Assembly (NCBI GenBank): GCA_020060105.1
Contig: JAGVAV010000023.1
Location: forward strand, 14,905-78,904
DNA length: 64,000 bases
Source: Candidatus Woesebacteria bacterium
GTDB lineage: Bacteria > Patescibacteriota > Microgenomatia > Woykebacterales > 2-01-FULL-43-14
Direction: 5' to 3'
This document shows positions 1,982 through 29,900 of the stretch, piece after piece. A model generated the notes under the pieces. It ran no database searches and was not told where the DNA came from. It saw nothing but the letters and a program-made list of their open reading frames with translations. The position numbers were made by a program, and so were the translations under genes. Numbering within the stretch: position 1 is the stretch's first letter; each line of letters begins with the position of its first letter.

Positions 1982-2016
1982 GGTGTGAACCTAACACACC
2001 CGGAGGGTGTGAAACC
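1982..2016 (+). repeat. Palindromic intergenic repeat, copy A (full-length GGTGTGAACCTAACACACCCGGAGGGTGTGAAACC)
   Basis: Exact 7-bp stem / 3-nt loop hairpin CACACCC-GGA-GGGTGTG. The 5' arm GGTGTG..CACACC can form an alternative hairpin. It is translated spuriously at the N-terminus of ORF 1985. Confidence 0.9.
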
Positions 2017-2059
2017 AATACTATTGCCACTCAAGCTTCGAAAAAGTATACTTAAAAAG

Positions 2060-2917
2060 ATGGATATTTTGATCTTTGGCACAGTTTGTATCGATCACAA
2101 TGTTACGGAAAGTGGAAAAATTACCTCTTGGGGCGGAACAGGAATGTTTATTTCCAAAATTCTCAGTCAACTCCCTCAAACCAATACAACTGTTATTTGC
2201 AACTACGGTCCTGACTATCTTGAATATCTTAAAGGTATAAATATTTATCCCTTATCACCGAGCGTTCCAAATACTTTAGTTTATGAAAACGTTAGCCAAG
2301 GAAAAACCCGGACTCAAAAAGCCTTATTTCGAGACAATTCCGAACCAGTGGAAATTACTCAAGATTTGAAATCAAAAATTGAAAATGCTCATATCATTTT
2401 CTTTGCCCCGCTGTTACCAAATCTTTCTACTGCTTATATCCACAAAGTGACGCAGCTTGCCAACAAAGAAAGTCTAAAAGTCCTTTTACCGCAAGGATAT
2501 TTTAGAAGCTTTGATAGTGAAGATAATGTCATACCACGAGACTTTCAGGAAGCGGCAGAAATGCTCCCTCTGGTAGATTTTGCCATCATCTCGGATCAAG
2601 ACACACAAGATGTGGATAATGTAGCACAAAACTGGGCGGAAAAAACAGGCGTTCAGGTTATTGTCACTAGGGGAGAGGATGGAGCAAGTATTATCTCTAA
2701 AGAAGAGAGCCAAGTAGTGCCAACTAAAGCGGTACCTCTGGAGGAAATCGTTGACTCCGTAGGCTCAGGCGATACCTTCAGCGCCGGTTTTGCCTATCAA
2801 TATTATTTAACCAAAGACATTACTAAAAGCCTTCGTTTCGCCAATAAACTAGCTGCCGCAAAACTTTATTTCAAACCAAAAGATATAAAGTTCGACTACG
2901 CAAAACTTCTAGACTAA
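2060..2917 (+). CDS. PfkB-family carbohydrate kinase (ribokinase-like)
   Basis: PfkB signature DSVGSGDTFSAGFAY near the C-terminus. ATG at 2060 (MDILIFGTVCIDH). The upstream part of ORF 1985 is a translation of the repeat. Confidence 0.8.
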   Translation: MDILIFGTVCIDHNVTESGKITSWGGTGMFISKILSQLPQTNTTVICNYGPDYLEYLKGINIYPLSPSVPNTLVYENVSQGKTRTQKALFRDNSEPVEITQDLKSKIENAHIIFFAPLLPNLSTAYIHKVTQLANKESLKVLLPQGYFRSFDSEDNVIPRDFQEAAEMLPLVDFAIISDQDTQDVDNVAQNWAEKTGVQVIVTRGEDGASIISKEESQVVPTKAVPLEEIVDSVGSGDTFSAGFAYQYYLTKDITKSLRFANKLAAAKLYFKPKDIKFDYAKLLD

Positions 2918-2934
2918 TTCGTCTAGTTTTTTTC
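2908..2934 (+). terminator. Putative intrinsic terminator of the pfkB-like gene
   Basis: Stem CTAGAC / GTCTAG with a 6-nt loop, followed by T7. It overlaps the stop codon. Confidence 0.4.
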
Positions 2935-2966
2935 AACCTTATCCCAGTTAACTATATTCCAAAACT

Positions 2967-2995
2967 AACCTAACACACCCGGAGGGTGTGAAACC
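2967..2995 (+). repeat. Palindromic intergenic repeat, copy B
   Basis: AACCTAACACACCCGGAGGGTGTGAAACC. Confidence 0.9.
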
Positions 2996-3182
2996 ATTAT
3001 CCGTTAGGTCCTATTTGTCTTTTGGAATTTTTTCCTACCGCTCGCTGACGAGATTACCATTTATTGATTATTCATGGACTCCAGGTCAAAGCGTTTAGTT
3101 TATTCAGTTTTAAAGGTATTTTAGAACAAATCTTCTCTAGATTACAAATTCCTGGTACAATAAATCCAGTTTGGAAGAAATT

Positions 3183-3704
3183 ATGAATGAAAATAATCTA
3201 GAAATACTTTCTTTACCTTTGGAAAGTTGGCAAGAGTATAAAGAACTTCGTTTGAGAGCTTTGCAGCGTGAACCCCAAGCGTTTGGATCTAATTATGCCC
3301 GAGAAGTTGAGTATCCAAACGAAAAATGGCAACAAAGAATCCAAGGAGTCATTGATGGTCAAGGTTTGATGCTATTTGCCAGATTAGACGGAAAACTTGT
3401 AGGCATGATTGGAGGATACCAAGATGACGACAATAAACCCCAAAAGAGAATTCAAATTTGGGGGATGTATGTTGATCCAGAAGCTCGCGGTAGAGGAATT
3501 GCAAAAACATTAATGAATAATCTAATTAGCAAAATCCGAGAGAGAGGAGATATTTTAATAGCTAAACTGGAAGTTAACGAAGACCAGGATCCAGCCAAAA
3601 AACTTTATGAGAATATGGGTTTCAAAATTGTTGGCACAAAAACAAGAGCTTTAGGAGATGGTAAAAAGCATCAGTTACTCGAAATGGAACTTGATCTTAT
3701 TTAA
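3183..3704 (+). CDS. GNAT family N-acetyltransferase
   Basis: GNAT motif A (QIWGMYVDPEARGRGIAKTLM). ATG at 3183; TTG at 3171 is an alternative start. Confidence 0.75.
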   Translation: MNENNLEILSLPLESWQEYKELRLRALQREPQAFGSNYAREVEYPNEKWQQRIQGVIDGQGLMLFARLDGKLVGMIGGYQDDDNKPQKRIQIWGMYVDPEARGRGIAKTLMNNLISKIRERGDILIAKLEVNEDQDPAKKLYENMGFKIVGTKTRALGDGKKHQLLEMELDLI

Positions 3705-3777
3705 GTTCACCCAACAGCACTTTTCTAACATACTTTGTGTTACTAGCACTTGTGCTGAGACCTATTGGAATATTAGT

Positions 3778-3803
3778 CTAACACACCCGGAGGGTGTGAA
3801 ACC
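3778..3803 (+). repeat. Palindromic intergenic repeat, copy C
   Basis: CTAACACACCCGGAGGGTGTGAAACC. ORF 3658-3861 is a spurious translation of it (LTHPEGVKP). Confidence 0.9.
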
Positions 3804-3811
3804 AGAAACCA

Positions 3812-4423
3812 TCATATTTTCAGCGTTGAAGAAACAAAGTCACAAAGAGGTTTGCCGATAGCTTTTTGCCAAAATTCATCTTGCTCTGACTGTTGCATCT
3901 CTGCAATATATTTACCACTTTCAGGATCAACTTGGAGGGACTCTAAAGGATACCCAGGAACAACTTTAGTGCTGATTTCACTTGTAAATACCCTAGGAGA
4001 AATGATATTTATTTCACCTAACGATCCTTGAGAATTAGCTATACAAACTCCAAATTCCCAATGTCCATTTATTCTTCCTCCCAATCTCTTAATAACTTCA
4101 GAATAATGTCTAAGTAAGTCTTCATCCGTTGGCCTTTTATCTCCATTACCAATCCTCCTAACATTTAGCCCTGGTTGTTGATCATCTGTTAATCCATCCA
4201 AATATAAGGCATTATCCATCGAGAGAATTGTCTGATTTAAAGCTTCTGCATAAGCTATAGCCTTCTTTCTAGCGTTCTCTATGGCTGTTTGACCGTCTTC
4301 ATCAACCTTGGGTAATAAATCCTTATTCTCTACACCTTTTACAGAAATATTAAGGGGAGCTAATGCACCAAGAATCTGTTTAACCTTAGCTTCATTGGTT
4401 GTCCCGACAATAATTTCTATCAT
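3812..4423 (-). CDS. Ham1/ITPase-like non-canonical NTP pyrophosphatase (divergent paralogue)
   Basis: N-terminal IIVGTTNEAKVKQ (compare ATGNxGK) and VDEDGQTAIENARKKA (compare ETGxTFxENAxxKA). Confidence 0.55.
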   Translation of the reverse strand: MIEIIVGTTNEAKVKQILGALAPLNISVKGVENKDLLPKVDEDGQTAIENARKKAIAYAEALNQTILSMDNALYLDGLTDDQQPGLNVRRIGNGDKRPTDEDLLRHYSEVIKRLGGRINGHWEFGVCIANSQGSLGEINIISPRVFTSEISTKVVPGYPLESLQVDPESGKYIAEMQQSEQDEFWQKAIGKPLCDFVSSTLKI

Positions 4424-4485
4424 TTCCTTTAATCCTGATAATCTTGAATATATCTTTCAAAATCCTCCACAGTTTGGACATAAAC

Positions 4486-5028
4486 TCATTCGAGTTCCTC
4501 TTTCTTTAACATCATTAAATACTTTTCCTCTTTTTCTGGTGGAACTTGAGTAGTTCTAAAATGTTTAAAGCCTACTTTTTCGTAAGATTTGATTGCTCTT
4601 ATATTCTTTAATTCTGGATCGACTATACAGGCACTTATTTCCCCTCTAACAAAAACAATCTCTTTAAGAAATTTTCTTAACATCCTACTACCCAAACCTT
4701 TACCCACAAACATCTGCTCGCCAATAAATAAATCTACACCGGCAATTCCCTCAGTACTTATATTTAACTGCAGAGAATAATCTGGGTAATCGCTTATTTT
4801 ATAAGTCTGAATAAAACCAAAAAGAGAATTTTCGTAGTAAACGATGTAACAATCAGTCGGTTCTTTTCCTTCAATACGAGGATTATATTTTTTAACGAGA
4901 GAATCAATATCACTTGCTTCGTCTCGCCCATACCATTCCTTTACAAAAGGTTCATTCAGCCATTTATGAAGCAGCGATAAATCATCAACTCGTAATCTTC
5001 GAAAAGAAATTTTATTTTCGTTCTGCAT
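4486..5028 (-). CDS. GNAT acetyltransferase resembling aminoglycoside 6'-N-acetyltransferase AAC(6')-Ib family
   Basis: WLNEPFVKEWYG, GKGLGSRMLRKFL and NIRAIKSYEKVGFK parallel the conserved AAC(6')-Ib blocks (WLNRPHIVEWWG / GKGLGTKLVRAL / NLRAIRCYEKAGF). Confidence 0.6.
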   Translation of the reverse strand: MQNENKISFRRLRVDDLSLLHKWLNEPFVKEWYGRDEASDIDSLVKKYNPRIEGKEPTDCYIVYYENSLFGFIQTYKISDYPDYSLQLNISTEGIAGVDLFIGEQMFVGKGLGSRMLRKFLKEIVFVRGEISACIVDPELKNIRAIKSYEKVGFKHFRTTQVPPEKEEKYLMMLKKEELE

Positions 5029-5194
5029 GAGTTAAGTATACCAATTTTCTCAAACAGTAATGAGTAGGGTAGTGGGGTAAGCACTAAAGTCGTAGGTTCT
5101 AAACATGTTGACCCCGGTTCAATCAAATCCCAATCAATCTTGGTTGACTACAGTCTGAATTACCAATCTGATCGCATAGTGATATAATACTTGC

Positions 5195-5533
5195 ATGATT
5201 ATTATCAAATCCGAACCTTACCTTCGGGAAGAAATAGAAAAACTTAAAGAACAGTTTGACGTTTATGTTAAAACAGTAATCGATGTTGAGAAAAAAGTTT
5301 GCTCGGCGGGAATGGGCAGGCACTATGAAGGTGAGGAGATCTTGATAAAACAAGGTTCGAAACAAAACGATATCTGGGGCGGGGGAGTCGATTTAGAAAC
5401 AAAAACAGTTGATTTTAACTCATTTATTAATATCAGGCCAAATCAAAGTAATCCCAGTAATGAAATCCTTGATCCAGTTTTAAGAAAAAAATATGAAGAT
5501 TTAACGAGGTATTTTTTCAAGGAAGTATTATGA
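5195..5533 (+). CDS. Small conserved hypothetical protein, first gene of a six-gene operon; apparently leaderless
   Basis: The ATG lies 6 nt after a TGATATAAT -10 element. The stop overlaps the next start (ATGA). Confidence 0.5.
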   Translation: MIIIKSEPYLREEIEKLKEQFDVYVKTVIDVEKKVCSAGMGRHYEGEEILIKQGSKQNDIWGGGVDLETKTVDFNSFINIRPNQSNPSNEILDPVLRKKYEDLTRYFFKEVL

Positions 5534-5832
5534 CTAGACAAGAGTTCGACACGTTAAACACCCTTGCTGCATTAGCTTTAGACTTAAAAAGAGCTTCTCT
5601 TGGAATTCACCGCGGGTCTATCCAAATGGCCAGACAGTTTGAAAAACAAGCCATGAATAGAAAAAACGAGATAAATCAAAATTACCTGAAAACGTATCTC
5701 CAACGCACCCTTAAGAAAACAGAGGAATCACTCCATTGTTCTGATGAAAAAAAGAAAGCCGAAGACCTTCTCACTTACAGCGTTATTTTCCAAAACTATG
5801 CCCAAAAGGCCCTGGCAGTAGAAATAAAATAA
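5530..5832 (+). CDS. Hypothetical protein (100 aa), translationally coupled
   Basis: ORF with a 4-nt overlap with the upstream gene; the next gene starts 5 nt downstream. Confidence 0.45.
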   Translation: MTRQEFDTLNTLAALALDLKRASLGIHRGSIQMARQFEKQAMNRKNEINQNYLKTYLQRTLKKTEESLHCSDEKKKAEDLLTYSVIFQNYAQKALAVEIK

Positions 5833-5836
5833 ACCT

Positions 5837-6361
5837 ATGACACAAAAACCAATCCAATATTTATTAGTGGGTCTCCCTTACTCGGGAAAGACTACATTAG
5901 CGAAAGAGCTAGTTAGTAGATTAGGATTTGCCTATATTAATATAGGCCAACTTAAGTGGGATAAGGGATATTCTGATGTTGGGGACGATGATGTCCCTGA
6001 TAAAGTATGGAAAGAAATCTTTGAAAAGGCGGATAAATTAATCCTTAAGTATTTAAACGAAGGAAAAAATCTGGCAAATGAGTATGCCTGGGTAACCAAG
6101 AAATGGAGAGACAGAGCAAGGAAAGTTGTCGCAAACGCAGGATTTGAAACAAGAACCATTTACCTGAAGATACCAGTAGAGGAAGTAAATAGAAGGTGGA
6201 TAGAAAACATTAAGACTAAAAATCACTTTCATTGGCCTAAAGATGAATTTAATAATTACTTAAGGGATTTTGAAGAACCAACTTTGGAAGAAAATGTGAT
6301 ATTGTATGATCAATCTATTCCTTTTGATAATTGGGTAAAGAAAAATAACTTTTATGGATGA
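5837..6361 (+). CDS. AAA_33-like P-loop kinase (polynucleotide / small-molecule kinase fold)
   Basis: Walker A GLPYSGKTTLAKEL. Size of 174 aa and layout fit the AAA_33 / zeta-toxin-like kinase class. Confidence 0.6.
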   Translation: MTQKPIQYLLVGLPYSGKTTLAKELVSRLGFAYINIGQLKWDKGYSDVGDDDVPDKVWKEIFEKADKLILKYLNEGKNLANEYAWVTKKWRDRARKVVANAGFETRTIYLKIPVEEVNRRWIENIKTKNHFHWPKDEFNNYLRDFEEPTLEENVILYDQSIPFDNWVKKNNFYG

Positions 6362-7336
6362 TTTAAGAACGGTAGTAAATCAAATCGTTAGTAAAAGTGT
6401 GGAGTTAAAAAATAAATATACCGAAGAAAAAACCGCTCCCGTAGAGTTTGCTTGCATTTTTTGCCAAACAGACGAAGAATATAAAAAATTTACTGATGAA
6501 GTTAAAGAACTAGGAAAAGTGGTTGAAGATACTCCAACGGGATTTACTTATTTATTAAGTGAACCTCTTCAAACTATTGCCGGCCCTTTAAGCCTAGTAA
6601 AAATAAGAATGCCTGAAAAATCAAGGAAAGAAAGAGGGGACGCTGACTTCAATACAAACTATTCAGAATTTAAAAATAAATATTTAAACCAGCCAAATTT
6701 TGAGTTAATTAAGCGAGACAACTTTGAAATGCTGCGATTATCGGAACCAGGCAACAATGTTATGGTCTGCTTCTCAAATACCCCTAAGAGCAAACTTTTC
6801 GGCATCCCCACTCAAGAGGAGAATCAGTTAAAATATTCCTTCAAACGGTACGAAGATTTCTTTCCGGAACTCTTTGAACAAGAGAAAAAAGACTAAGCGA
6901 CTTTTTGCCCGAACCTTATCGAATTGAGCATGTCGGCAGTACAGCCGTAGTTGGATTAGGAGGTAAAGGAATAATCGATATTTTGATCTCCGTTCCTAGA
7001 GAGAAAATGGGTGAGTATTCATCAAAATTACGAGAAGCTGGATATGTTTTTAGCCCTCAAGCATGTACAAAAGACAGATATTTTTACAAGCAGGATATAG
7101 AAACTGCCAAATATCGGACCAGAAGATTTCACATACACCTTACTTACCCGAGTAGTCAAGACGAACAAGAAACTTTGGCCTTTAGGGATTATCTTCGAAA
7201 CCACCCGGAAGAGGTAAAAAGATATTCCGATATTAAGGAAGAGGCAGGAGCTTTAGATAACGTTAACAAAAAAACGTACTGGGCCAAAAAGGAACCTGTG
7301 TTTCGAGATATTCTGTCGAAGGCGTTAAAAGAATGA
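6354..7336 (+). pseudogene. Unknown N-terminal domain fused to a GrpB-family (UPF0157) nucleotidyltransferase-fold protein; reading frame broken by a -1 shift at an A6 tract (6885-6890)
   Basis: The GrpB N-terminal block (KRYEDFFPELFEQEKK) ends ORF 6354-6896 in frame 0. The GrpB core (IEHVGSTAVVGLGGKGIIDILI) continues in frame 2 from 6905. One extra A in the tract would give the in-frame junction EQEKKRLSDFLPEPY, which matches GrpB. Confidence 0.55.
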
Positions 7337-7357
7337 GTAATATGGTATAAATTAGTT

Positions 7358-8017
7358 ATGAATATCGAATTTGAAGCCACATTTCCAAACGTTGATAAAG
7401 ATAAAATTAGAGAAAAACTACGAAAGATAAATGCACAGTTAGTCAAACCTGAATTGTTACAAAAAAGGTCCGTCTATCGTTTACCTTCGGGACATGAAAT
7501 TAATGGAGGCTGGTTAAGAGTGAGAGACGAGGGAGATAAGGTTACAATGAGTTTAAAAGTAGTAGACGGCGACAAAATAGAAAACCAAAAAGAAGTTTGT
7601 TTGACTGTAGATAATTTTAAACAAGCAGAGTTACTTTTAATTACAATAGGTTGCGAGAAAAAAGCGTACCAAGAAAGCAAAAGAGAGCTATGGAAATTTG
7701 ATAATGTTGAAATTACTATCGATGAGTGGCCGTTTCTTGAGCCATTTGTAGAAATAGAAGGAAAGTCAAAACAAGAAGTAAAGAAAGTTTCGGAATTACT
7801 TGGTTTTGAATTTAATAAAGCGTTATTTTGTGCCGTAGATACTCTATACAGCCAAAAATACGCAATTTCAAAAGACTGGATCAATAACAAAACACCCTCA
7901 ATTGTTTTTAATGAAGAAAACCCTTTCTTAAACAATAGTAAGTTGAGTGGTGGGGTAAGCCTCCCATTTAAAGGTTCTAAAGATGTTGACACAGACAACC
8001 ATTCGACTTCGTCCTGA
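7358..8017 (+). CDS. CYTH-domain protein (triphosphate tunnel metalloenzyme / class IV adenylate cyclase-like)
   Basis: N-terminal MNIEFEATF...K..R (CYTH ExExK signature) and WLRVRDEGDKVTMSLK. The last ~40 codons overlap an inverted-repeat region and may not be real. Confidence 0.55.
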   Translation: MNIEFEATFPNVDKDKIREKLRKINAQLVKPELLQKRSVYRLPSGHEINGGWLRVRDEGDKVTMSLKVVDGDKIENQKEVCLTVDNFKQAELLLITIGCEKKAYQESKRELWKFDNVEITIDEWPFLEPFVEIEGKSKQEVKKVSELLGFEFNKALFCAVDTLYSQKYAISKDWINNKTPSIVFNEENPFLNNSKLSGGVSLPFKGSKDVDTDNHSTSS

Positions 8018-8115
8018 GTAAAATCGAGGGACTTCGTTCATAGTCTTTGACCACTTGTTAACAACGGCAACTTTATATCTTTCACAAGTCGAATGTCTCG
8101 AGCGAAGTCGAGAGG
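7995..8115. repeat. Nested inverted repeats at the 3' end of the operon (CATTCGACTTCG / CGAAGTCGAG / CAAGTCGAATG)
   Basis: Complementary segments seen directly in the sequence. Possible terminator or structured RNA. Confidence 0.35.
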
Positions 8116-8201
8116 CCATATCATTTTATCTTGTCCTATCTAGAAAACAAAATACTTAGAAATAAAACAGGCGTGAAAACCACCTCAACATGTTTATAAT
8201 T

Positions 8202-8230
8202 GACTTACTGCTTTGTCTTCAGTATAATCT
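8202..8230 (+). promoter_or_regulatory. Sigma-70-like promoter TTGACT-17-TATAAT
   Basis: Consensus hexamers with a 17-nt spacer, upstream of the G9 tract and the small ORF. Confidence 0.45.
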
Positions 8231-8256
8231 CAACTACAATAAACGAGGGGGGGGGA

Positions 8257-8373
8257 ATGAACACTCAAACGACTTCAACAACGCTGTGGAAGCATCTCCT
8301 AAGCAACGCTAAAACTCCCAAAACCTTACCGTCATTTTTCCACAAATGGCGGTCTTTCTTTAATATCCCTTGA
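8257..8373 (+). CDS. Putative 38-aa small protein whose ribosome-binding region is a G9 homopolymer
   Basis: ATG 1 nt after GAGGGGGGGGG (the G run is 8247-8255). ORF reads MNTQTTSTTLWKHLLSNAKTPKTLPSFFHKWRSFFNIP. It is below the ORF-track size cutoff. Confidence 0.25.
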   Translation: MNTQTTSTTLWKHLLSNAKTPKTLPSFFHKWRSFFNIP

Positions 8374-8565
8374 AGTAAACTAAATCTGCAAGAAAGCTTA
8401 AAAATCAACCGTCAACATTACTTAACCACATTTGAGAAAGACCCAAGAAAAAATCTCTAAGTAAGAATAATCTTTATCACAAGGTAAGGAGACTAACCTG
8501 CTAGAATGTTGTAAACACTCCAAGAAAAAACTATTTTTATCTTTAGTTCCCTTTGGTGATCGTCT

Positions 8566-9114
8566 ATGGATCAAAATATCCAACCCTTTGACTTACAACG
8601 CATGTTTTTTGGAGACTATCCTCTGCTTTTCCTACTGGAAGTCCTCTTCAGAACAGCCTTCATGTACCTTTATATGCTGCTAGCTTCCAGATTTCTTGGA
8701 AAACGAGGAGTCGGACAGCTTACTCCATTCGAATTTATTATCGTTATCGTCTTAGGCTCGGCGGCAGGGGACCCGATGTTTTATCCTCAGGTATCTCTGC
8801 TCCAGGGAGTAGCCGTCATAACAGTCGTAGTATTGCTCGAAAAGGTAATTGCCGAACTATCTCAAAGAAACAAGAAGCTGGAACATATCATACAGAGCAC
8901 CCCACAACTTTTAGTCAAAAACGGACAAGTTCTGGATAAAGCTTTAAATGAATCTGGACTAACCAAACAAGAGCTGTTAATGCAGCTTCGAACGGAAAAC
9001 ATAAGAGATATCGGTGAGGTAGAATACGCTTACCTTGAACCGATGGGAAAACTAAGCGTTTTTAAGCTAGAAGGGGGGAAAGAAAAGAAAGTAGAAACTA
9101 CTCTCCCACAATAA
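8566..9114 (+). CDS. DUF421 (YetF-like) membrane protein
   Basis: LGKRGVGQLTPFEFIIVIVLGSAAG is typical of DUF421. Confidence 0.6.
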   Translation: MDQNIQPFDLQRMFFGDYPLLFLLEVLFRTAFMYLYMLLASRFLGKRGVGQLTPFEFIIVIVLGSAAGDPMFYPQVSLLQGVAVITVVVLLEKVIAELSQRNKKLEHIIQSTPQLLVKNGQVLDKALNESGLTKQELLMQLRTENIRDIGEVEYAYLEPMGKLSVFKLEGGKEKKVETTLPQ

Positions 9115-9131
9115 CCATTAGATAATATTAT

Positions 9132-9157
9132 GAACCTAACACACCCGGAGGGTGTGA
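9132..9157 (+). repeat. Palindromic intergenic repeat, copy D (3' end diverged)
   Basis: GAACCTAACACACCCGGAGGGTGTGA. Confidence 0.85.
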
Positions 9158-9233
9158 GTGCAAGTTGTCAATAGTTCCAGCTTAGGTCAATTTGTTTGTT
9201 GAATCCATTTTTCCCTAAAACTAAAATTCCAGC

Positions 9234-11918
9234 ATGCCGAATAAACCAATTTGCGATATTTGTCATATCCGACCCGCTACTCATACCATCCAAGTATCTA
9301 GAAATGGAAAAAGGGAAATAATCCAAGTTTGCGACGTCGATTACCAAAACGCTATAGAGCAACGAGGTTTTTTCTCACCCTTTGAGTCTTCCTTTGGTGC
9401 AGACCCTTTCGGATTCTCCTCTGATTACTACGATAATTTTGAAAACCTTTCTTCTCGGATAGGTTTTCCCATTCCCAGACACCGTGAATCCGTCGACATT
9501 GACCAGTTCTTCTCCGAACACACCAAAGAACTGATTCAAAAAGCTGCTCAAAAGGTCATTGAGTCTGGCAGAAACGAACTTGACACTGAGCATCTTCTGT
9601 ACGCCCTTATTGATAGCGATGTCATTACCGAAATCTTGGAACAATTCAATATCAATCCAAAAGATCTTAAAGGATACGTTGAAGACAACATCCCAAAAGG
9701 CAGGTTAGATAAGAAGGAAAAAGCCGAAGTCACTGTCTCTCCAAGAGTAAAAAATGTTATCGAAAAAGCCTTCGAAGTTTCTCGAGAAATGGGACATAGC
9801 TATATCGGTCCCGAACATTTGTTATTAGGGCTGGCAATGGAAGAAGATGGCTTGGCCTACGATATTCTAAAAAGCTACGGGTTAAATGCAAATGCCATTC
9901 GGCAACAAACGTTAAAAGTGGTTGGTCGAGGAGCGAAGGAAGGCCGAGTCGAAACTAAAACCAAGACGCCTCAACTCGACAAATATTCCCGCGATTTATC
10001 CAGGTTAGCCAAAGAAGGAAAACTAGACCCGGTTATCGGCAGATCCGATGAAATTGAGACAACGATTGAAATTCTCTCTCGAAGAACAAAAAATAATCCC
10101 GCATTGATCGGAGAACCCGGCGTCGGAAAAACAGCGATAGTTGAAGGACTAGCCCAAAGAATTGAAAACCGCGACGTTCCGGAAGTGTTGCTGAATAAAA
10201 GAGTGGTCGAATTTAATATCAATTCCATTGTCGCCGGATCTAAGTACCGAGGAGAATTTGAGGAAAGAATTAAAGAAGTCATCGACGAGATAGTTGTTCA
10301 TAAAGACGAATTGATTATTTTCGTTGATGAGCTGCATAACATTGTCGGTGCCGGAGCAACCGGAACGGAAGGTGGCCTAGATGTCTCTAACGTAATCAAA
10401 CCCTACCTGGCCCGGGGAGAACTTCACCTGATCGGAGCCACCACTCTAAATGAGTACCAGAAATATATTGAAAAAGACATGGCTTTGGAACGAAGATTTC
10501 AGCCTGTCTTTATTTCCGAACCGACCGTCCTCCAAACAATTGAGATTCTTCGCGGATTGCGGGACAAGTATGAAGCTCATCACAAAGTTAAAATTACAGA
10601 TGAGGCGATCGTTGCCGCAGCCGAACTTTCAAATAAATATATTAGTACCCGCTTCTTGCCTGATAAGGCAATCGATCTCGTGGACCAAGCCGCTTCTAGA
10701 GTGAGAATCCTTTATGCTTCGAAACCAGAAACCGTCAAAAAAATCGAAGAAAAAGTGACCCGATTAAAGAGGGAAGAAGAATCAGCCACTTCTCGAAGAC
10801 AATACGATCAAGCGAAAAGGTACGCTGAGGAAATTCAAGCCCTAGAAAAAAATATTGAAGAAGAAAGGGCTAACTGGCGAAGAGAAAGGGGAGTTACCAC
10901 CGGCGAAGTGAAAAAGGAACACATTGCTCAAATCGTTTCCAAAATCACAGGTATTCCTGTAACTGACCTTACGCAAGAAGAAAGAGAACGGCTTTTGAAA
11001 ATGGAAGAAAAACTTCACCAGCGAGTCATTGGTCAAAACGAAGCAGTTACCGCTGTTTCGGACGCGGTTCGTCGCTCCCGAGCAGGCTTAACGAGTGGAA
11101 AACACCCAATTGCCACCCTTATGTTTCTCGGCCCAACCGGGGTGGGAAAAACCGAACTGGCTAGATCTCTGGCGTGGGTCATTTTTGGGGATGACGAAGC
11201 CTTGATTCGATTGGATATGAGCGAGTATAGGGAAAGGCACTCTGTTTCTAGATTAATCGGCGCTCCACCGGGCTATGTGGAGTATGAAGAAGCCGGGCAA
11301 CTCACCGAATCCATTCGAAGACGGCCTTACAGCGTTGTCTTGCTTGATGAGATTGAAAAAGCCCATCCAGACGTTTTCAATATTCTTTTACAGGTTTTAG
11401 ACGACGGCCGGCTCACTGACAGTAAAGGACGAACGGTTGATTTTACCAATACTATTATTATCGCCACAAGCAATCTCGGCTCTGATATTATTTACAAAAA
11501 TTTAATGACCAAGCAGAAAAAATCTTACGAAGAATTAAGAGGGGAGTTAAATATTTTACTCAAGAATTACTTCCGACCAGAGTTTTTGAACCGAACCGAT
11601 GAAATTATTGTTTTTCATGCTCTCACTGAAGAAGAAATAAAGACCATTACTAAGCTTCGGTTAGAAAGACTTAAGGTAATGGCTCGGGGGCAGGGAATTG
11701 ATCTTTCTTTCGATAAATCGGCCGTTGAACACATCGCCAAAGAAGGCTTTGCCCCAGAATTTGGAGCGCGAGAACTTCAAAGAAAAATCAAAACAGAGAT
11801 CGAAAACCCTCTCGCTAAAGAAGTGTTGAGCGGAAAAATAAAAGAAGGGGAGAAAATCGTGGCTTTTTTCGATCCTGTAAATCATGTTTTCAATTTTTCC
11901 CATTCAGCTTCTCCCTAA
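9234..11918 (+). CDS. clpC: ATP-dependent Clp protease ATP-binding subunit ClpC/ClpA-type, with an N-terminal Cys/His-rich extension
   Basis: Clp_N repeats (EHLLYALI, EHLLLGLA). Two AAA modules (GEPGVGKTAIVEGLA; GPTGVGKTELARSLA). N-terminal CDICHIRPATH...VCDVDY. Confidence 0.9.
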   Translation: MPNKPICDICHIRPATHTIQVSRNGKREIIQVCDVDYQNAIEQRGFFSPFESSFGADPFGFSSDYYDNFENLSSRIGFPIPRHRESVDIDQFFSEHTKELIQKAAQKVIESGRNELDTEHLLYALIDSDVITEILEQFNINPKDLKGYVEDNIPKGRLDKKEKAEVTVSPRVKNVIEKAFEVSREMGHSYIGPEHLLLGLAMEEDGLAYDILKSYGLNANAIRQQTLKVVGRGAKEGRVETKTKTPQLDKYSRDLSRLAKEGKLDPVIGRSDEIETTIEILSRRTKNNPALIGEPGVGKTAIVEGLAQRIENRDVPEVLLNKRVVEFNINSIVAGSKYRGEFEERIKEVIDEIVVHKDELIIFVDELHNIVGAGATGTEGGLDVSNVIKPYLARGELHLIGATTLNEYQKYIEKDMALERRFQPVFISEPTVLQTIEILRGLRDKYEAHHKVKITDEAIVAAAELSNKYISTRFLPDKAIDLVDQAASRVRILYASKPETVKKIEEKVTRLKREEESATSRRQYDQAKRYAEEIQALEKNIEEERANWRRERGVTTGEVKKEHIAQIVSKITGIPVTDLTQEERERLLKMEEKLHQRVIGQNEAVTAVSDAVRRSRAGLTSGKHPIATLMFLGPTGVGKTELARSLAWVIFGDDEALIRLDMSEYRERHSVSRLIGAPPGYVEYEEAGQLTESIRRRPYSVVLLDEIEKAHPDVFNILLQVLDDGRLTDSKGRTVDFTNTIIIATSNLGSDIIYKNLMTKQKKSYEELRGELNILLKNYFRPEFLNRTDEIIVFHALTEEEIKTITKLRLERLKVMARGQGIDLSFDKSAVEHIAKEGFAPEFGARELQRKIKTEIENPLAKEVLSGKIKEGEKIVAFFDPVNHVFNFSHSASP

Positions 11919-12020
11919 TCTATTTTACCTATGCGGATATCCCAATTTCTGTTAACCACCCTGTTTTCGTTAAAGGCATTCTGATTCGAAATTTTTCTCT
12001 AGAAGTGATATAAGTTATGT

Positions 12021-13001
12021 ATGAGTGACCAGAACATTAAGTGGAACAATAAAGTTAAGCTTGTTTTAGCCGATGTCGATGAGACGATAGCGGATGTTTA
12101 TACTCCCGCGGAGCCGGAAATGATCGGAGAACTAACCTCTGTCCTTGAAGAAGGGGTAGTTATCTTTTTCGTTACAGGAGCAAGCCTCGCGAGGGTCGAA
12201 TCGAGAATTACTAATCAAATTCCAGGCCATCTGAGAAGATTTACATTAGTAAGCCACTGTAACGGGGCAGAAGTATGGGGGTTTAATAGCGAGGGAGATA
12301 AAAAGGAGAAGCCCTTTTACAGTCTCTATGATGAAACTTTTTCCCAACAACAAAAAGATAAATGGCGAGAAATTGTCAAACAACTAATTGAAGAGTTTAA
12401 ACTCTCGGTCTACCCGGCAACTAAAGTTTCGGAGTTTAAAACGATGGCTGGCCATAATCCGCTAGCCGTAATGCTCGAAGATAGAGGACCGCAAATAACT
12501 TTTGAATTTGTTAACGGTTATGACCTCACACCGGAACAGGAAAAACAGCTAGAAATGTCCGTGCCACAAACTAATGGAGCACTAGATTTAAGAATTCCGG
12601 TGCTCGAAAGAGCAGATCGCCTGTTTCAAGAAAATAATATTCCGGTTACGCCAAGATTAGGAGGAATATTTGCCCTAGATTTTGCCATAAAAGGGGTATC
12701 AAAAACCTACTCAGTAAAGCACGTTCTCGAAAATGAAAATATCCTTGAGTCTGCCGGTTTATCAAGACAAGATTTAGAAAATCCAGATCACATTGAGATC
12801 TGGGGCGATAAATTTGATCAATTTAGAGGCGGCACGGATCGGCATATGTGCGAGGCGGTAAACCCAAAGGTTAGAGCGATTGACTTTCGTGAGGAAGACC
12901 CTTCCGGTTTTCTTCCTGGCTACAACGTGGTAATTTGGAAGGGAAAATATCACCTACACCATGGTTTACTAGAGTATCTTAAATCTCGACATAACAAGTA
13001 G
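12021..13001 (+). CDS. HAD-superfamily hydrolase (IIB-like phosphatase)
   Basis: Motif I LADVDETIAD (DxDxT). A distal GDKFDQ acidic motif. Confidence 0.6.
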   Translation: MSDQNIKWNNKVKLVLADVDETIADVYTPAEPEMIGELTSVLEEGVVIFFVTGASLARVESRITNQIPGHLRRFTLVSHCNGAEVWGFNSEGDKKEKPFYSLYDETFSQQQKDKWREIVKQLIEEFKLSVYPATKVSEFKTMAGHNPLAVMLEDRGPQITFEFVNGYDLTPEQEKQLEMSVPQTNGALDLRIPVLERADRLFQENNIPVTPRLGGIFALDFAIKGVSKTYSVKHVLENENILESAGLSRQDLENPDHIEIWGDKFDQFRGGTDRHMCEAVNPKVRAIDFREEDPSGFLPGYNVVIWKGKYHLHHGLLEYLKSRHNK

Positions 13002-13030
13002 GTGTGAACCTAACACACCCGGAGGGTGTG
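13001..13030 (+). repeat. Palindromic intergenic repeat, copy E (full 5' arm)
   Basis: GGTGTGAACCTAACACACCCGGAGGGTGTG immediately after the HAD stop codon. Confidence 0.9.
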
Positions 13031-13149
13031 TTAGTGGAGTTACAAGTCGGGGCTAGCCCTGATCCAATCGGGGCTGGCGGATCAAGTTAAATGGGTGTAT
13101 AATTCTTTCCAACGAGAACAAAATTCAGATTGGAAGGAGGGTGAGAGCC

Positions 13150-14577: not shown

Positions 14578-14710
14578 TCCCTGATTGATTAGAAAAGTAG
14601 AGATTAAAAGTAACAAAAGTGTATTCAAAAGAGAACCGTCCCCTTAGCCTTGCTTTTTATTCACGTTTATCCTTATAATAAGTCCCAAAGAAAATTCAAG
14701 GAGGGGGACA

Positions 14711-16064: not shown

Positions 16065-16092
16065 CTTGTTAAACTTGCCTATAGTTGTATAA
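16065..16092 (+). promoter_or_regulatory. Putative promoter containing CCTATAGTTG and TATAAT
   Basis: TTGTTA-16-TATAAT with the CCTATAG motif inside. Exact -35 assignment is ambiguous. Confidence 0.35.
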
Positions 16093-16138
16093 TATATCTC
16101 TAGAAAGCTATCCAGATATTAGGAAAGGAGAGGAAGCA

Positions 16139-16810
16139 ATGTCTGCGGTAGTGGCTCTAAAGGAGCTGAAAGAGAGAATTAGCCACGTAAAATCTTCATT
16201 GGTAATGGCTCTAAAGAAGCTAAAGGGGAGACTTAGCCACGTAAAATCTTCATCCTGGCACTTTCAGTTCGTTGAAATGGTCTGGAAGGAGGGCGCTCGG
16301 AACTCGAAAGCTTGTTCGTATTACTGGGTTAAGTTTCCCACCTCGATGCTGATCGTTCTATTGGTTCTTTGCTTAGTTGGGGTGGTTTATCCCGTGGGGT
16401 GGTTCCTAGGCTTCCAGTTTAAGTTTTCAGCACCTAAAAGCGGCGAGTATAATGAGGGTGGTGAATTATTTTACCCTTACAAAACCACCAGAAAAGGTAA
16501 AAAGGTCCGGTTTGCTCCGTGGGAAATCGCTATGGGGATTTGCTGGGCCTTGATCGTAATCTTGGTGGCCCACCATCTAGTTTTCAATGACCCGGCCTTG
16601 GGCGTCGGGATACTCACGTATGGAGCATTGACAGTCGCGTTAGTCACTCTCTGCGTGCTGCTGTGGCCCGTGTTACGGAAGAAGGCAACTTCAAGTGATC
16701 GACCCAGACTTAGGCTGTTTTCTTTCCGGGGCAGTATCGACAATCGGCTCACCCGCAATCTGTCTTCTTTTTGGGACAGGGTCTGTCCCAAACTAATCGT
16801 TGACGAATAA
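16139..16810 (+). CDS. Hypothetical membrane protein with an internal 54-nt tandem duplication
   Basis: RBS GGAAAGGAGAGG upstream of the ATG. The duplicated 18-aa unit is ALKELKERISHVKSS / ALKKLKGRLSHVKSS. Multiple TM segments. Confidence 0.5.
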   Translation: MSAVVALKELKERISHVKSSLVMALKKLKGRLSHVKSSSWHFQFVEMVWKEGARNSKACSYYWVKFPTSMLIVLLVLCLVGVVYPVGWFLGFQFKFSAPKSGEYNEGGELFYPYKTTRKGKKVRFAPWEIAMGICWALIVILVAHHLVFNDPALGVGILTYGALTVALVTLCVLLWPVLRKKATSSDRPRLRLFSFRGSIDNRLTRNLSSFWDRVCPKLIVDE

Positions 16811-25842: not shown

Positions 25843-26040
25843 TAAGACGATTATACCAGAAAACTGCCGAAATGTACATTTAGCTTCGCCGTTTTACGCT
25901 TAGTATAAGTTCGGAAGGGGGACGTTTCTCTTTTGAATACGAAATTGGTTAATTTTTTAAGTTAACGGCTTCCTAACGATACACTCTTAATCTCTTTCCT
26001 TCTCCTTGACACCTGCCAACCCTTCCCTTATCATAAATAT

Positions 26041-26352: not shown

Positions 26353-26363
26353 GGGAGGTCTTT

Positions 26364-26663
26364 ATGAAAATCGAAGTTTTAGGTTCCGGATGTAACAACT
26401 GCAAAAAGCTCTATGACCTGACTAATCAGGCAGTTAAAGAATTAAACCTCGAGGCCGAGGTTGAGTACATAACTGATATCAAAAGGTTAGTTGAAATGGG
26501 GATAATGCAAAGCCCTGCCCTCGCCATTGACGGGGTTGCGGTAATGACGGGCGCGACAACAAACCTCGAGAAAATCAAAGAGGTCCTTCAAAAAGATAAA
26601 TCGGATAATTCAGCCAACGGCTGCCAAAACAAAACTTGTCGTTGTCATAACGGCTGCTGCTAA
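26364..26663 (+). CDS. Thioredoxin-fold redox-active disulfide protein 2 with a Cys-rich C-terminal tail
   Basis: GSGCNNC active-site motif. Tail is NGCQNKTCRCHNGCC. Confidence 0.7.
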   Translation: MKIEVLGSGCNNCKKLYDLTNQAVKELNLEAEVEYITDIKRLVEMGIMQSPALAIDGVAVMTGATTNLEKIKEVLQKDKSDNSANGCQNKTCRCHNGCC

Positions 26664-26668
26664 CGCAT

Positions 26669-27646
26669 ATGGATATTTTCTTTCCAATTCAAATATTTGC
26701 CGACTGGGTCGTTTATAATTTGCTCAACTTACCAAGATCAACGCAGCTTGCCGAAAGTTTAAACTTTTTTATCTACGACACTTTAAAAATTATTCTTTTG
26801 ATCGTGGTCATTAATTACTTAATGGCGGTCGTTCGTTATTACTTACCGATTGAGAAGTTACGCGATTTTCTAACCAGTCGAAAATTTTACGGATTTGATC
26901 ATTTGTTCGCCTCAATGTTTGGGGCGGTCACGCCGTTCTGCTCCTGCTCTTCCATTCCTTTGTTTATCGGTTTTCTAAAAGCCGGCATACCCTTAGGGGT
27001 AACTTTTTCCTTTCTTATTACCTCCCCCTTAGTCAATCAAGTAGCGGTGGCGATGTTCATTGGCCTTTTTGGCTGGAAAGTAACGCTAGTTTACATCACC
27101 GCGGGGATCCTGATTGGCGTAGTGGGAGGCTACGTTTTGGGTAAACTCAAAGTAGAAAAATACGTCGAAGACTTTGTCTGGAAAGTCCAAAGTCAACAAA
27201 ACAACTCTTCGAAGGAAAAAATATCTGCCGGAGATTTAATCAAACAATTTAACGCTGAAACTTGGGATATCACCAAAAAGATCGTTCCTTATGTTTTGGC
27301 CGGAATCGCTCTTGGGGCAGCTATCCACGGCTACGTTCCCGCTAATTTCTTCGAACGTTACATTACCAGAGATAATTTATTTGCCGTTCCCTTGGCCACT
27401 GTTGTCGCCGTGCCTCTTTATTCAAACGTTACTGGTGTTATTCCCATCGTTCAAGCGCTTGTTGCAAAAGGCATTCCTTTAGGAACAGCTTTAGCCTTTA
27501 TGATGGCAATCGTTGGGCTATCATTTCCCGAAGCAATGATTTTGAAAAAGGTGATGCGCTGGCAACTCCTGGCAATCTTTTTCGGAGTAGTCACCTTTGG
27601 AATAATACTAATTGGATATTTGTTCAACTTACTAAGTCTATCTTAG
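26669..27646 (+). CDS. arsP: Organoarsenical efflux permease ArsP (DUF318 permease)
   Basis: Diagnostic TPFCSCS motif (AVTPFCSCSSIPLF). Eight or more TM segments. Lies downstream of arsR. Confidence 0.75.
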   Translation: MDIFFPIQIFADWVVYNLLNLPRSTQLAESLNFFIYDTLKIILLIVVINYLMAVVRYYLPIEKLRDFLTSRKFYGFDHLFASMFGAVTPFCSCSSIPLFIGFLKAGIPLGVTFSFLITSPLVNQVAVAMFIGLFGWKVTLVYITAGILIGVVGGYVLGKLKVEKYVEDFVWKVQSQQNNSSKEKISAGDLIKQFNAETWDITKKIVPYVLAGIALGAAIHGYVPANFFERYITRDNLFAVPLATVVAVPLYSNVTGVIPIVQALVAKGIPLGTALAFMMAIVGLSFPEAMILKKVMRWQLLAIFFGVVTFGIILIGYLFNLLSLS

Positions 27647-27658
27647 GGTAACCAAAGG

Positions 27659-28318
27659 TCATAAGTACCTATCAAACCACGCTGCCGCATGGCCTGCGAC
27701 TTCCTCCAATTTTCCCTCTTCCTCAAAAAGATGGGTTGCCCCGGGAACAATCACCAACTTCTTATCTTTGGCCTTGGTTAGTTTTTCCAAAGCTTTTTTA
27801 TTTAAATCAATTACCGGGTAGTCTTCTCCGCCAACCAAGAAAAGAACGGCCGTTTCAACTTTACTCAAATCTTCGCCAGCCAAATCCGGCCGACCCCCTC
27901 TGGAAACCACCGCTTCAATTTTTTCTGGAAGCTGAGCGGCGGCAACTAAAGCCGCTGCAGTGCCGGTTGAGGCCCCGAAATAACCCACCTTCAGATTTCT
28001 CGTAAACTGATTTTCGCTTGTAAAACGAGTGGAGGAAACTAGTCTGCCGGCTAAAAGGTCGATATTAAAGCGGTACTGCCCGGTAATTTCATCCTCTTTT
28101 TCTTCATCTTCCGTTAATAAATCAATGAGAAGAGTCGCCATGTTCGCTCTGTTTAAAACCTCCGCGACGTATCTATTGCGAGGGCTAAATCTCCCACTAC
28201 CGCTACCGTGAGCGAAAATGACCAATCCGTGAGCCTCTTCGGGAACGTTTAAATTTCCCTTAATAAATTTTCCTTCAGTCTCTATCTGGACTTCTTGACT
28301 TAAACTTTTTTCACCCAT
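27659..28318 (-). CDS. Dienelactone hydrolase family alpha/beta hydrolase
   Basis: HGSGSGRFS and GYFGASTGTAAAL nucleophile region. Confidence 0.65.
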   Translation of the reverse strand: MGEKSLSQEVQIETEGKFIKGNLNVPEEAHGLVIFAHGSGSGRFSPRNRYVAEVLNRANMATLLIDLLTEDEEKEDEITGQYRFNIDLLAGRLVSSTRFTSENQFTRNLKVGYFGASTGTAAALVAAAQLPEKIEAVVSRGGRPDLAGEDLSKVETAVLFLVGGEDYPVIDLNKKALEKLTKAKDKKLVIVPGATHLFEEEGKLEEVAGHAAAWFDRYL

Positions 28319-28500
28319 TTATCTCCTTTTTTCTCATACTCGTGTTTTAAGGCGGCAAAGGCCACCCGATGAGCTCTGGCGCCTTCACCGTAAGTTTCAA
28401 CGGCACTGTCATGGGTTTTTTTCCAAATCTCTTGAGCGTGCTGATCCGATCTCTGAATAGTCTTTGGAACGGCCACTACTGACACCTCCTTTCGTAACAC
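28300..28500 (-). CDS. ChaB family protein
   Basis: PKTIQRSDQHAQEIWKKTHDSAVETYGEG...AFAALKHEYEKKGDKW. Confidence 0.6.
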   Translation of the reverse strand: MLRKEVSVVAVPKTIQRSDQHAQEIWKKTHDSAVETYGEGARAHRVAFAALKHEYEKKGDKWVKKV

Positions 28501-28605
28501 CTTGACAGTTCATGCCCCAGATTTTAAGCCAAGGCGAAAGTTTTGAGTAGCGTCAAGGATTAGTCTCCTTGACTCATTTTAAAAGATCCAATTCTTCCGG
28601 ATAAA

Positions 28606-28617
28606 GGGTGTGAAACC
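28606..28617 (+). repeat. Partial copy (3' half GGGTGTGAAACC) of the palindromic repeat
   Basis: 12-nt identity to the 3' arm of the repeat. Confidence 0.5.
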
Positions 28618-28729
28618 AAATTGTACAGAAAATTTGAGGAAAAGAAAACCCGCCTTAAGCATTTCTGCAAAAAGCGGGCCTGTCCACCGAAGCTTTACGC
28701 GAAGGTGGGCGAACCAAGTTTCCGAGAAT

Positions 28730-29689
28730 CTAGTTCCTAGACCGGCGGAGACCGACAGCCGAACCCCATTTCCCGTCCGAATCGTCAACCCAGGCGACGT
28801 TGAACTCGAGCCCGCCGTCGAAGCAGAAGAGCAGGCAGTACTCGTCGAACTGGGACTCGCCGCCAGGATCATACTCGTCTCCAGGGAAATCGATGTGCAA
28901 AAGGTCGTTATTGCCGAGACGGGTGTGGTCGATCAGTAGGATACTACCGCCAACAATGGCCGGCCAAGCCCACCGATCTCTGTTCACGTACATCGTATCT
29001 TCTCGACAACATCTCGGACTCCAGCCCCCACACTCTTTTCCGAAGGAGCCGAGTTCGAGAATGTAGTCCCCTTTGGTTTGAGAATCAACCCATTCCAAGT
29101 ATTGTCGGGTGGGCGACCAGAGTCGAACGTGCTTTTCGGTAAGAGCGTCCTTTCGGTAGTTGTAGAACCTCCCATCGTAGGCTTTGACCAGACGGTCTTT
29201 GATTAGCCATTCCAGGCAAGGGCCATAGCCTTTGCCGTAAGGGTCTTTGGCCCCGACGATCTTTCCCACCAAATCCAGTCGAGGTCGCCAGTACACCCGC
29301 TGATCACACCAGGGGGGAATCACCAGACCGCTTTCCGGCTCCACGATGCAAGAAGCATCCAGCTCCGGAATGGCTTTCTGGAATCCTTCCGCCCATCGCT
29401 GTGCGGTTAAAACCGGCCAGGGATTAGGGTAAGACCGCGTTGGCGTGACCTTTTCATTGGCGTACTTGTTGCTCAAACTTTCGAAGGTTAGTGCTCCTGA
29501 TGAAAGAATCTGTTCGATCTGCCGAGCTTCGGTGGAGTCGTGGGGCAATCGGACCAGTTGTGCGATCCGTTCGTTGTACCATTTCGGGTCCTGATGATAG
29601 CCGTCTCCTCCCAACTCTTTGGGAAGCCGGTCTCCCAGTGCTTTGATCATCTCCCAGATTTGCCCGGGAGTCGCCTGTGTTTTTCCCAC
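28730..29689 (-). CDS. Hypothetical protein, markedly GC-rich gene
   Basis: GTG start after AAGGAGAGG. GC content is well above the neighbours. Flanked by repeat copies. Confidence 0.5.
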   Translation of the reverse strand: MGKTQATPGQIWEMIKALGDRLPKELGGDGYHQDPKWYNERIAQLVRLPHDSTEARQIEQILSSGALTFESLSNKYANEKVTPTRSYPNPWPVLTAQRWAEGFQKAIPELDASCIVEPESGLVIPPWCDQRVYWRPRLDLVGKIVGAKDPYGKGYGPCLEWLIKDRLVKAYDGRFYNYRKDALTEKHVRLWSPTRQYLEWVDSQTKGDYILELGSFGKECGGWSPRCCREDTMYVNRDRWAWPAIVGGSILLIDHTRLGNNDLLHIDFPGDEYDPGGESQFDEYCLLFCFDGGLEFNVAWVDDSDGKWGSAVGLRRSRN

Positions 29690-29770
29690 AGTAACCTCTC
29701 CTTAATTTTTTACTTCTGCTATAAAGCAGAGCAATTACTATATATACCAAATACCAAAAATTGGCTTGAA

Positions 29771-29782
29771 TGTCAACTATAG
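29771..29782 (-). promoter_or_regulatory. CCTATAGTTGACA motif (minus strand) upstream of the 28730-29689 gene
   Basis: The reverse complement reads CTATAGTTGACA. The downstream -10 is weak (TATTTG). Confidence 0.35.
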
Positions 29783-29871
29783 ATCGCCTCTGGATCGGGA
29801 AGCTAGGGAGAGAATCGCAATGCGGCAGCCAAGTAGAGCCCCCATAGCCCGACCGAAATGTCTAAATAGTT

Positions 29872-29900
29872 AACCTATCACACCCGGAGGGTGTGAAACC
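29872..29900 (+). repeat. Palindromic intergenic repeat, copy F
   Basis: AACCTATCACACCCGGAGGGTGTGAAACC. Confidence 0.9.

Follow-up and report, generated by a model that had tools for sequence, protein, structure and literature searches.

The 64-kb stretch of DNA analysed here, called the window below, belongs to a metagenome-assembled contig of 84,309 nt and carries between its genes a family of short palindromic repeats with a hairpin core (Table 1). Gene content was read by scanning nearly every sizeable open reading frame (ORF) of the window against Pfam, NCBIfam and PHROGs. Five copies of the repeat lay in an AT-rich accessory block at 1-13 kb, where GC content at third codon positions (GC3) was 25-33% in the first 8 kb and rose to about 40% over 8.5-13 kb (25-40% for this compositionally foreign block vs. 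40-65% elsewhere in the window). Past the block came ordinary chromosomal genes, namely transporters, pyruvate kinase, purB/C/E, Fur and ArsR. Named best protein matches were from Patescibacteria group bacterium, Microgenomates and Saccharimonadales, and the nearest relatives had only 43-71% amino-acid identity to proteins of the window; the window looks like part of a Patescibacteria (candidate phyla radiation, CPR) genome.

The 17-mer CACACCCGGAGGGTGTG had six exact matches in the window (at 1995, 2974, 3782, 9140, 13014 and 29879), all on the + strand, and none in 100 dinucleotide-preserving shuffles of the window, even at up to 2 mismatches. The core formed a perfect 7-bp stem with a 3-nt GGA loop, and the aligned copies followed the module order [AGGTGTG]-AACCTAA-CACACCC-GGA-GGGTGTG-[AAACCA], in which the bracketed parts are optional and the unit length is 24-37 nt. 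The left flank AACCTAA was exact in 4 of 6 copies and had 1-2 mismatches in the remaining two; these changes aside, a 24-nt heart of AACCTAA plus hairpin was common to all six. The right flank AAACC was present in copies 1, 2, 3 and 6, with unrelated sequence in its place in copies 4 and 5, and the 5' module AGGTGTG occurred only in copies 1 (1981-1987) and 5 (13000-13006). Loop and flanks are asymmetric and thus define a single orientation. A right-half relic shared the exact 12-mer GGGTGTGAAACC (28606-28617), which is far beyond chance; the 12-mer was preceded by CCGGA and a 4-nt insertion, and the relic, spelled CCGGA-taaa-GGGTGTGAAACCAA, had kept the loop, right arm and 3' module and lost the left arm. 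The family within the window thus consists of six identical hearts and one relic, and the oriented family, the stem-loop core and the half copy described in an earlier, sequence-only reading of this DNA were all borne out.

Table 1. Positions in the window of the repeat copies, the relic, a palindrome compared with them and the gene products of the accessory block.
Feature	Position	Strand	Description
Copy 1	1981..2017	+	AGGTGTG-AACCTAA-CACACCC-GGA-GGGTGTG-AAACCA; only copy with every module
Copy 2	2967..2996	+	AACCTAA-core-AAACCA
Copy 3	3775..3804	+	AGTCTAA-core-AAACCA
Copy 4	9133..9156	+	AACCTAA-core, without AAACC
Copy 5	13000..13034	+	AGGTGTG-AACCTAA-core-TTAG
Copy 6	29872..29900	+	AACCTAT-core-AAACC
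Right-half relic	28597..28619	+	CCGGA-taaa-GGGTGTG-AAACCAA; left arm missing, hence hairpin cannot form
Palindrome GACACCCCGGGGGTGTC	53368..53384		4/17 mismatches to core; membership not established
Accessory block	1-13 kb		Res-like helicase/nuclease C-terminal part, pfkB kinase, two GNAT acetyltransferases, Ham1
Accessory block	1-13 kb		DUF5674, AAA_33 kinase, GrpB, CYTH proteins
Accessory block	1-13 kb		YetF-like protein, ClpC/ClpK-like ATPase, HAD-like protein

That the copies are due to chance, or to an assembly or adaptor artefact, is excluded for practical purposes. The contig was assembled from a metagenome and the exact 17-mer was also met by chance in unrelated organisms, but those matches were without the family flanks and none of the shuffles held a match; moreover, the flanks of the copies were conserved yet variable in extent, the neighbouring genes were intact, and a decayed half copy was present. 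Kinship of the palindrome at 53368, which the sequence-only reading had counted as related, was not upheld, as about 1.6 chance matches of its kind were expected in 128 kb of two-strand sequence (an estimate under uniform base frequencies). An HNH endonuclease gene ended 30 nt before this perfect palindrome, and a strong terminator came just after it (53391-53417; whole region 52666-53425).

All seven elements were intergenic, compared with 13.1% of the window (P about 6.5e-7, on this report's own gene set), which confirmed the strictly intergenic position claimed earlier; the sole overlap with a gene was that of copy 5 with the final two bases of a stop codon. This copy provided the TAG stop of the HAD-like ORF upstream (12021-13001), the TAG being contained in a GTAG at 12998-13001. 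Within the block, four copies were in unidirectional spacers and one in a convergent spacer, and all five were downstream of a + strand gene: copy 1 was 107 nt past the stop of the Res-like gene, copy 2 was 49 nt past that of pfkB, copy 3 was 70 nt past that of a GNAT gene, copy 4 was 18 nt past that of the YetF-like gene, and copy 5 was at -2 nt. A promoter-like TTGCCA-17-TATACT (2024-2052) followed copy 1, and a weak canonical terminator (2909-2926 + T7) preceded copy 2. Distances to the next start were 42, 186, 77 and 110 nt in the block, the first being from copy 1 to the pfkB ATG and the third from copy 4 to the ClpC ATG, and 159 nt outside it; copy 3 instead faced the convergent, - strand Ham1 gene, whose stop was 7 nt away. 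Spacing between copies was 808-16,865 nt, the closest pair being 808 nt apart, with genes in between. The ten-gene block at 3812-9114 had no internal sites.

The relic (28.6 kb) lay between two - strand genes, antisense to both, and copy 6 (29.9 kb) in a 370-nt divergent spacer between a gene for a 319-aa protein of no known family (- strand, 28730-29689) and a DAO/Rieske gene (+ strand, 30060). The earlier placement of every copy on the sense strand of flanking + strand genes was therefore correct for the five copies in 1-13 kb and wrong for these two elements. Since the relic and copy 6 were off the gene-direction pattern, orientation tracked the DNA strand and not local transcription, which fits a process at the DNA level.

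Recognition of the repeat as duplex DNA, either as the operator of a dimeric regulator or as a recombination or gene-capture site bracketing single accessory genes, is a rather unlikely explanation. The 7-3-7 palindrome was perfect and identical in every copy, as such a site might be, and three single genes were each bracketed by two direct copies (pfkB by 1 and 2, GNAT by 2 and 3, the 319-aa gene by the relic and 6). Enrichment in a block of foreign composition points the same way, and so does the half copy, whose break falls precisely at the loop and might stem from a crossover. However, no associated recombinase or regulator gene was found in the window, and no related cassettes with such sites in the searched collections and loci. 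Spacing to promoters varied, and the variable distance to downstream starts argues against a positioned operator. The asymmetric loop and flanks were perfectly conserved, which a symmetric dimer does not require, and the GC3 of the 319-aa gene (63%) was like that of nearby genes, so that this gene was not clearly foreign. It is quite improbable, in turn, that the hairpins are sites of an undescribed DNA-level system of a CPR bacterium, with little positive support for either version: gene capture without an integron, in which identical hairpin sites bracket single accessory genes and crossover is at the loop, as hinted by the half copy, or a new hairpin-guided single-strand DNA transposase depositing strictly oriented singletons in place of REPIN pairs.

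As RNA, the core hairpin had a predicted folding energy of -10.9 kcal/mol and dominated every local fold; stability was predicted for either strand, both as RNA and as single-stranded DNA. The RNA folds of the two strands were at -14.6 and -12.3 kcal/mol, and the single-stranded DNA folds at -8.9 and -8.6 kcal/mol. The stem was lengthened to 11 bp in copy 5; in copy 2, ACCTAAC finds its exact complement in GTTAGGT at 3003-3009, with which it makes an outer stem, and in copy 4 TTAGGT at 9182-9187 could pair with ACCTAA. Two mutually exclusive hairpins had been proposed earlier, the second between an upstream GGTGTG and the CACACC of the core. The upstream arm did exist, in copies 1 and 5 only, but the alternative fold reached -8.0 kcal/mol, whereas the core hairpin together with a small 5' hairpin reached -14.6 kcal/mol; at equilibrium, the pair probability was 0.002 for the alternative and 0.996 for the core. 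Because the cores were identical there was no covariation, without which the sequence cannot separate roles as RNA, as single-stranded DNA and as duplex DNA.

The repeat did not qualify as an intrinsic terminator, in agreement with the earlier statement that no U-tract follows it: 0-4 T were present in the 10 nt past the stem, and no copy had a + strand match in the terminator scan. The canonical terminators of the window, at 8328, 13466, 16833, 32863, 53391 and 56618, had stems of 10-17 bp and a T-tract. A recurring TGGCGGTTTTTCTTTG was seen at 8347, 13488, 16855 and 36004, and at three of these four sites it made up the 3' arm and tail of a long-stem intrinsic terminator, which indicates that canonical terminators are in use, with a rather stereotyped end.

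A non-mobile, host-selected cis-acting RNA element, serving as a non-canonical 3'-end, processing or protein-binding signal of the accessory block, is an unlikely explanation, if still one to be reckoned with. Across 6 x 17 nt of core there were zero substitutions next to modules that were wholly different, which looks like selection on the core. The repeat was carried by 5 of the 7 spacers that follow a + strand gene in 1-13.2 kb; one of the other two (8018-8565) had a canonical long-stem terminator (8328-8353), and the second (11919-12020), with neither repeat nor terminator, may be internal to an operon. Copies 1, 4 and 5 were placed between the upstream stop codon and a promoter-like site of the next gene. 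Against these points, copy 6 was in a divergent spacer, the relic was antisense to both neighbours, copy 2 was already downstream of a terminator-like site, identical cores left no covariation to be tested, ordinary terminators with U-tracts were at hand in the organism, the flanking genes had no common functional theme, and no Rfam family matched. Speculatively, such an element might present its GGA loop to a CsrA-like protein or be cut by a double-strand RNase.

Several other candidates were rejected. A clustered regularly interspaced short palindromic repeat (CRISPR), brought to mind by a hairpin followed by GAAAC, was dismissed on the irregular spacing, with no array and no Cas domain in the scanned ORFs; the CRISPR-DR families of Rfam gave no match to the elements even at E<=10. 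A miniature inverted-repeat transposable element was not supported, as no flank was duplicated at the junctions of the six copies and element boundaries differed between copies. On inspection, TGAAAC as the -35 box of a promoter for an extracytoplasmic function sigma factor had no conserved -10 at the right spacing in any copy, and the half-sites failed to align with parS or with the controlling inverted repeat of chaperone expression (CIRCE). An uptake sequence or Chi based on the GGTGTG half-site was rejected, its occurrences being inside the elements besides a few scattered 6-7-mer matches, and so was a tRNA-derived att site, with no tRNA or tmRNA gene found in the window. The idea that the 319-aa gene beside copy 6 hides a transposase was discarded, since neither family nor PDB searches nor a check for HUH gave a signal.

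No further member of the family was detected in the collections searched. A 20-nt pattern scan of 185,579 species-representative genomes returned one match, in a metagenome-assembled genome of Promethearchaeota, with unrelated flanks and attributable to chance. A 17-mer scan of JGI metagenomes returned 70 loci, none with AACCTAA or AAACC; a scan of a viral collection returned only one unrelated terminator-like hairpin, and blastn against plasmids and phages nothing relevant. Rfam gave 0 matches at the gathering score over the whole window and none to the elements at E<=10 in 1900-3900, and the family sequence was not found in the paper library searched. The earlier statement that the repeat matches no named element thus stood. 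The closest homologues of ClpC (71% identical), the DAO/Rieske protein (58%) and pfkB (62%) were in different gene contexts (loci L073-L081), and the 106 kb around them held neither a copy nor any interspersed family of a similar kind. On what was searched, the family seems confined to this genome.

Six contigs of metagenome Ga0265316 (L011, L023, L054, L059, L063 and L066) carried CTC-CACACCCGGAGGGTGTG-GGGTAGTAGC, and the variant GAGTAGTAG was seen in L025 of the same metagenome and in L062 and L071 of other samples. The Ga0265316 repeats are a different family, of an organism of 54-61% GC, that has the same 17-nt hairpin by coincidence.

Further features of the window were recorded beside the family. 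A direct repeat of ~75 nt with roughly 80% identity (5046-5115 and 7924-7995), sharing AGGTTCTAAA[C/G]ATGTTGAC, bracketed the 2.9-kb DUF5674, AAA_33, GrpB and CYTH block, its second copy overlapping the 3' end of the CYTH ORF; the pair could be a duplication or att-like. An inverted match of 39 nt with 85% identity (14606-14643 and 25918-25956, 11.3 kb apart; core 22/23, GTATTCAAAAGAGAACCGTCCCC) had each of its copies in a spacer, shortly upstream of the -10-like box of an outward-facing gene, and could be a shared regulatory site. For pfkB, DUF5674 and ClpC, a -10-like hexamer ended 7 nt before the ATG without a Shine-Dalgarno sequence (2047-2060, 5183-5195 and 9222-9234), a layout that suggests leaderless mRNAs; other genes, e.g., at 13141, had a clear GGAGG. 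The ClpC-like ATPase (9234-11918) was closest (about 70%) to proteins of loci L073, L075 and L076. Elsewhere, these proteins adjoined genes for a small heat shock protein (sHsp), a DegP-like protease, an NfeD/SDH protease and YfdX, a context that resembles transferable heat- or stress-tolerance islands, and the named homologues belonged to lineages far apart from each other (Bathyarchaeia, Parcubacteria and Methylomirabilis). Two tandem 54-nt units with 89% identity (16147-16253) formed a coding repeat within an ORF of unknown function (16085-16810). Over 17000-57000, sigma-70-type promoter-like sites outnumbered those in shuffled sequence (36 vs. 20.7 +/- 5.0 and 31 vs. 20.9 +/- 4.7); the first 17 kb, although AT-rich, showed no such excess (34 vs. 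33.6).

The explanation favoured for the repeat, and held at an even chance, is a lineage-specific, non-autonomous family of interspersed extragenic palindromes, similar to repetitive extragenic palindromes (REPs), in the genome of an uncultivated, Patescibacteria-like organism. What was observed of it is a 24-nt heart (AACCTAA plus the 7-bp stem with its GGA loop) with optional outer modules, present in spacers only and on one strand only. Spacers would have been seeded by a mechanism that recognises the hairpin and not fixed ends of the element. The most likely agent would be a single-strand DNA transposase of the HUH/Y1 class, of the IS200 or REP-associated tyrosine transposase (RAYT) type, encoded elsewhere in the genome, and the uniform orientation would follow if it worked on one replication strand. 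Copies behind a + strand gene would be transcribed into 3' untranslated or intercistronic RNA, where the hairpin of roughly -11 kcal/mol might hold back 3' exonucleases or serve as a weak site of pausing or stopping, in line with proposals made for REPs. Mobility of the family and its role at the RNA level are both presumed on this model. The decayed half copy indicates that the family can lose members, as expected of repeats and not of a fixed set of regulatory sites, and the lack of any copy in 106 kb of related CPR loci argues for a genome-specific family, as REP families often are.

Several observations weigh against a REP-like family. The copies were strongly clustered and not spread at the density of about 1 per 10 kb given earlier: among spacers of 30 nt or more, 5 of 9 in 1-13.2 kb held an element vs. 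2 of 40 elsewhere (Fisher P = 0.0012). No further full copy was found in the window at up to 8 mismatches in 29 nt, and an aged REP population should show such diverged variants. The ends of the element were heterogeneous (5' extension in 2 of 6 copies, AAACC in 4 of 6) around an identical core, which a model of cutting or copying between fixed ends does not predict and for which selection on the core could be an alternative. The identical core, the heterogeneous ends and the missing variants together keep the host-selected RNA signal and the duplex-DNA site alive as rivals. Pfam and other scans of the ORFs of the 64-kb window gave no Y1 or RAYT enzyme, no integrase and no other transposase, so that the search for a tnpA (RAYT) gene advised earlier came out negative here, with no Y1/HUH transposase in any scanned ORF; apart from annotated enzymes, a regular-expression scan for HUH...Y picked up just one open frame, of 104 codons at about 32.7 kb, and this overlapped an annotated gene. 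The GTAG or CGTC tag that marks most REP super-families (PMC3733652) was absent beside the core hairpin, which had CTAA on its 5' side (CTAT in copy 6) and AAAC, AGTG or TTAG on its 3' side; the only GTAG was the one at the HAD-like stop, ahead of copy 5's optional outer arm, where copy 1 has ATAG. In REP doublets forming hairpins (REPINs) and bacterial interspersed mosaic elements (BIMEs), two inverted REPs are less than about 130 nt apart, or orientations alternate regularly (bioRxiv 10.1101/2021.07.10.451892; PMC2817692), and no inverted pair was present here, with all copies on the + strand and at least 808 nt apart. A REP-RAYT system would have its cognate RAYT gene, for an HUH/Y1 transposase, between two inverted REPs.

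Repeats are scarce in the small, streamlined genomes of CPR/Patescibacteria, and there has been hardly any study of how this lineage regulates its genes or of the dynamics of its genomes. A REP-like family there, if true, would imply either a hairpin-recognising enzyme not yet seen or a reused RNA signal. The 24-nt heart could be used as a marker, in binning contigs of the organism and in following insertion polymorphism in its population. As it stands, this is another species-specific palindromic repeat family, known from one 64-kb piece and with a mechanism that we only infer.

Among known systems, attC sites of integrons share with the repeat a position after cassette-like accessory genes, a single orientation and a heptamer like RYYYAAC at the start. 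Membership of the copies in a chromosomal cassette array is nevertheless very improbable. In 5 of 6 copies, ACCTAAC or GTCTAAC agreed with RYYYAAC, the consensus of R''; copy 2 had the exact complement GTTAGGT 35 nt downstream, a GTTRRRY occurred within 170 nt in 3 of 6 copies vs. about 0.12 expected per copy, and the neighbours included small accessory genes such as GNAT and GrpB. However, the R' box was missing in the other half of the copies, the paired unit of 29-55 nt was too short and without spacer bubbles or L''/L' boxes, the ten-gene block lacked internal sites, and no intI gene was present in the window. The length of attC sites is about 57-141 bp.

Subterminal hairpins of IS200/IS605 elements are short and perfect, with a conserved motif of a few bases 5' of the foot and a strand-specific orientation. 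The repeat resembles these hairpins, and the gene-less derivatives of such elements, in all three traits; unlike them, it lacked a pair of left and right ends as well as tnpA and tnpB, and its junctions showed no conserved tetranucleotide that could be recognised as a target.

The nearest likeness is to REPs, whose REPIN-RAYT system has reportedly been the subject of work by Bertels and Rainey. Further sources on REP elements and that system are Nunvar 2010 (PMC2817692) and Di Nocera 2013 (PMC3733652). A REP is a small palindromic repeat unit (20-40 bp), extragenic and of species-specific sequence, found for the most part downstream of genes in unidirectional or convergent spacers, where it is near the 3' end of the upstream gene while its distance to the next start varies, and usually in more than 100 copies per genome; a REP terminus sometimes provides the TAG stop of a gene, in some families singletons prevail, and GTAG-23 of T. 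roseum is clustered at few loci (PMC3733652). Units of 24-37 nt with a 7-bp stem, positions mostly downstream of genes (five after a + strand gene, one divergent, one between - strand genes), species-specificity and a terminus giving a TAG stop are all REP-like, and singletons and clustering at few loci are as in some REP families. The repeat differs from the REP/RAYT system in CTAA in place of GTAG or CGTC, in the lack of inverted dimers within 130 nt and of a RAYT in the window, and in its restriction to one strand, invariant core, heterogeneous ends and Patescibacteria-like host. No dedicated transposase is known for REPs of the CGTC type (PMC3733652), and the repeat is like these as a palindromic extragenic family to which no associated transposase gene could be pointed; it differs from them in having no CGTC tag, and CGTC families are usually dimeric. 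The earlier designation as REP/BIME-like and a substrate of RAYT therefore holds as an analogy of form and placement, and not for BIME or REPIN pairs, tag or a Y1 enzyme in the window. Lacking these, the repeat was not filed as a member of the REP-RAYT system; by kind it is a new REP-like family, of previously undescribed sequence and familiar type in an unusual host lineage.

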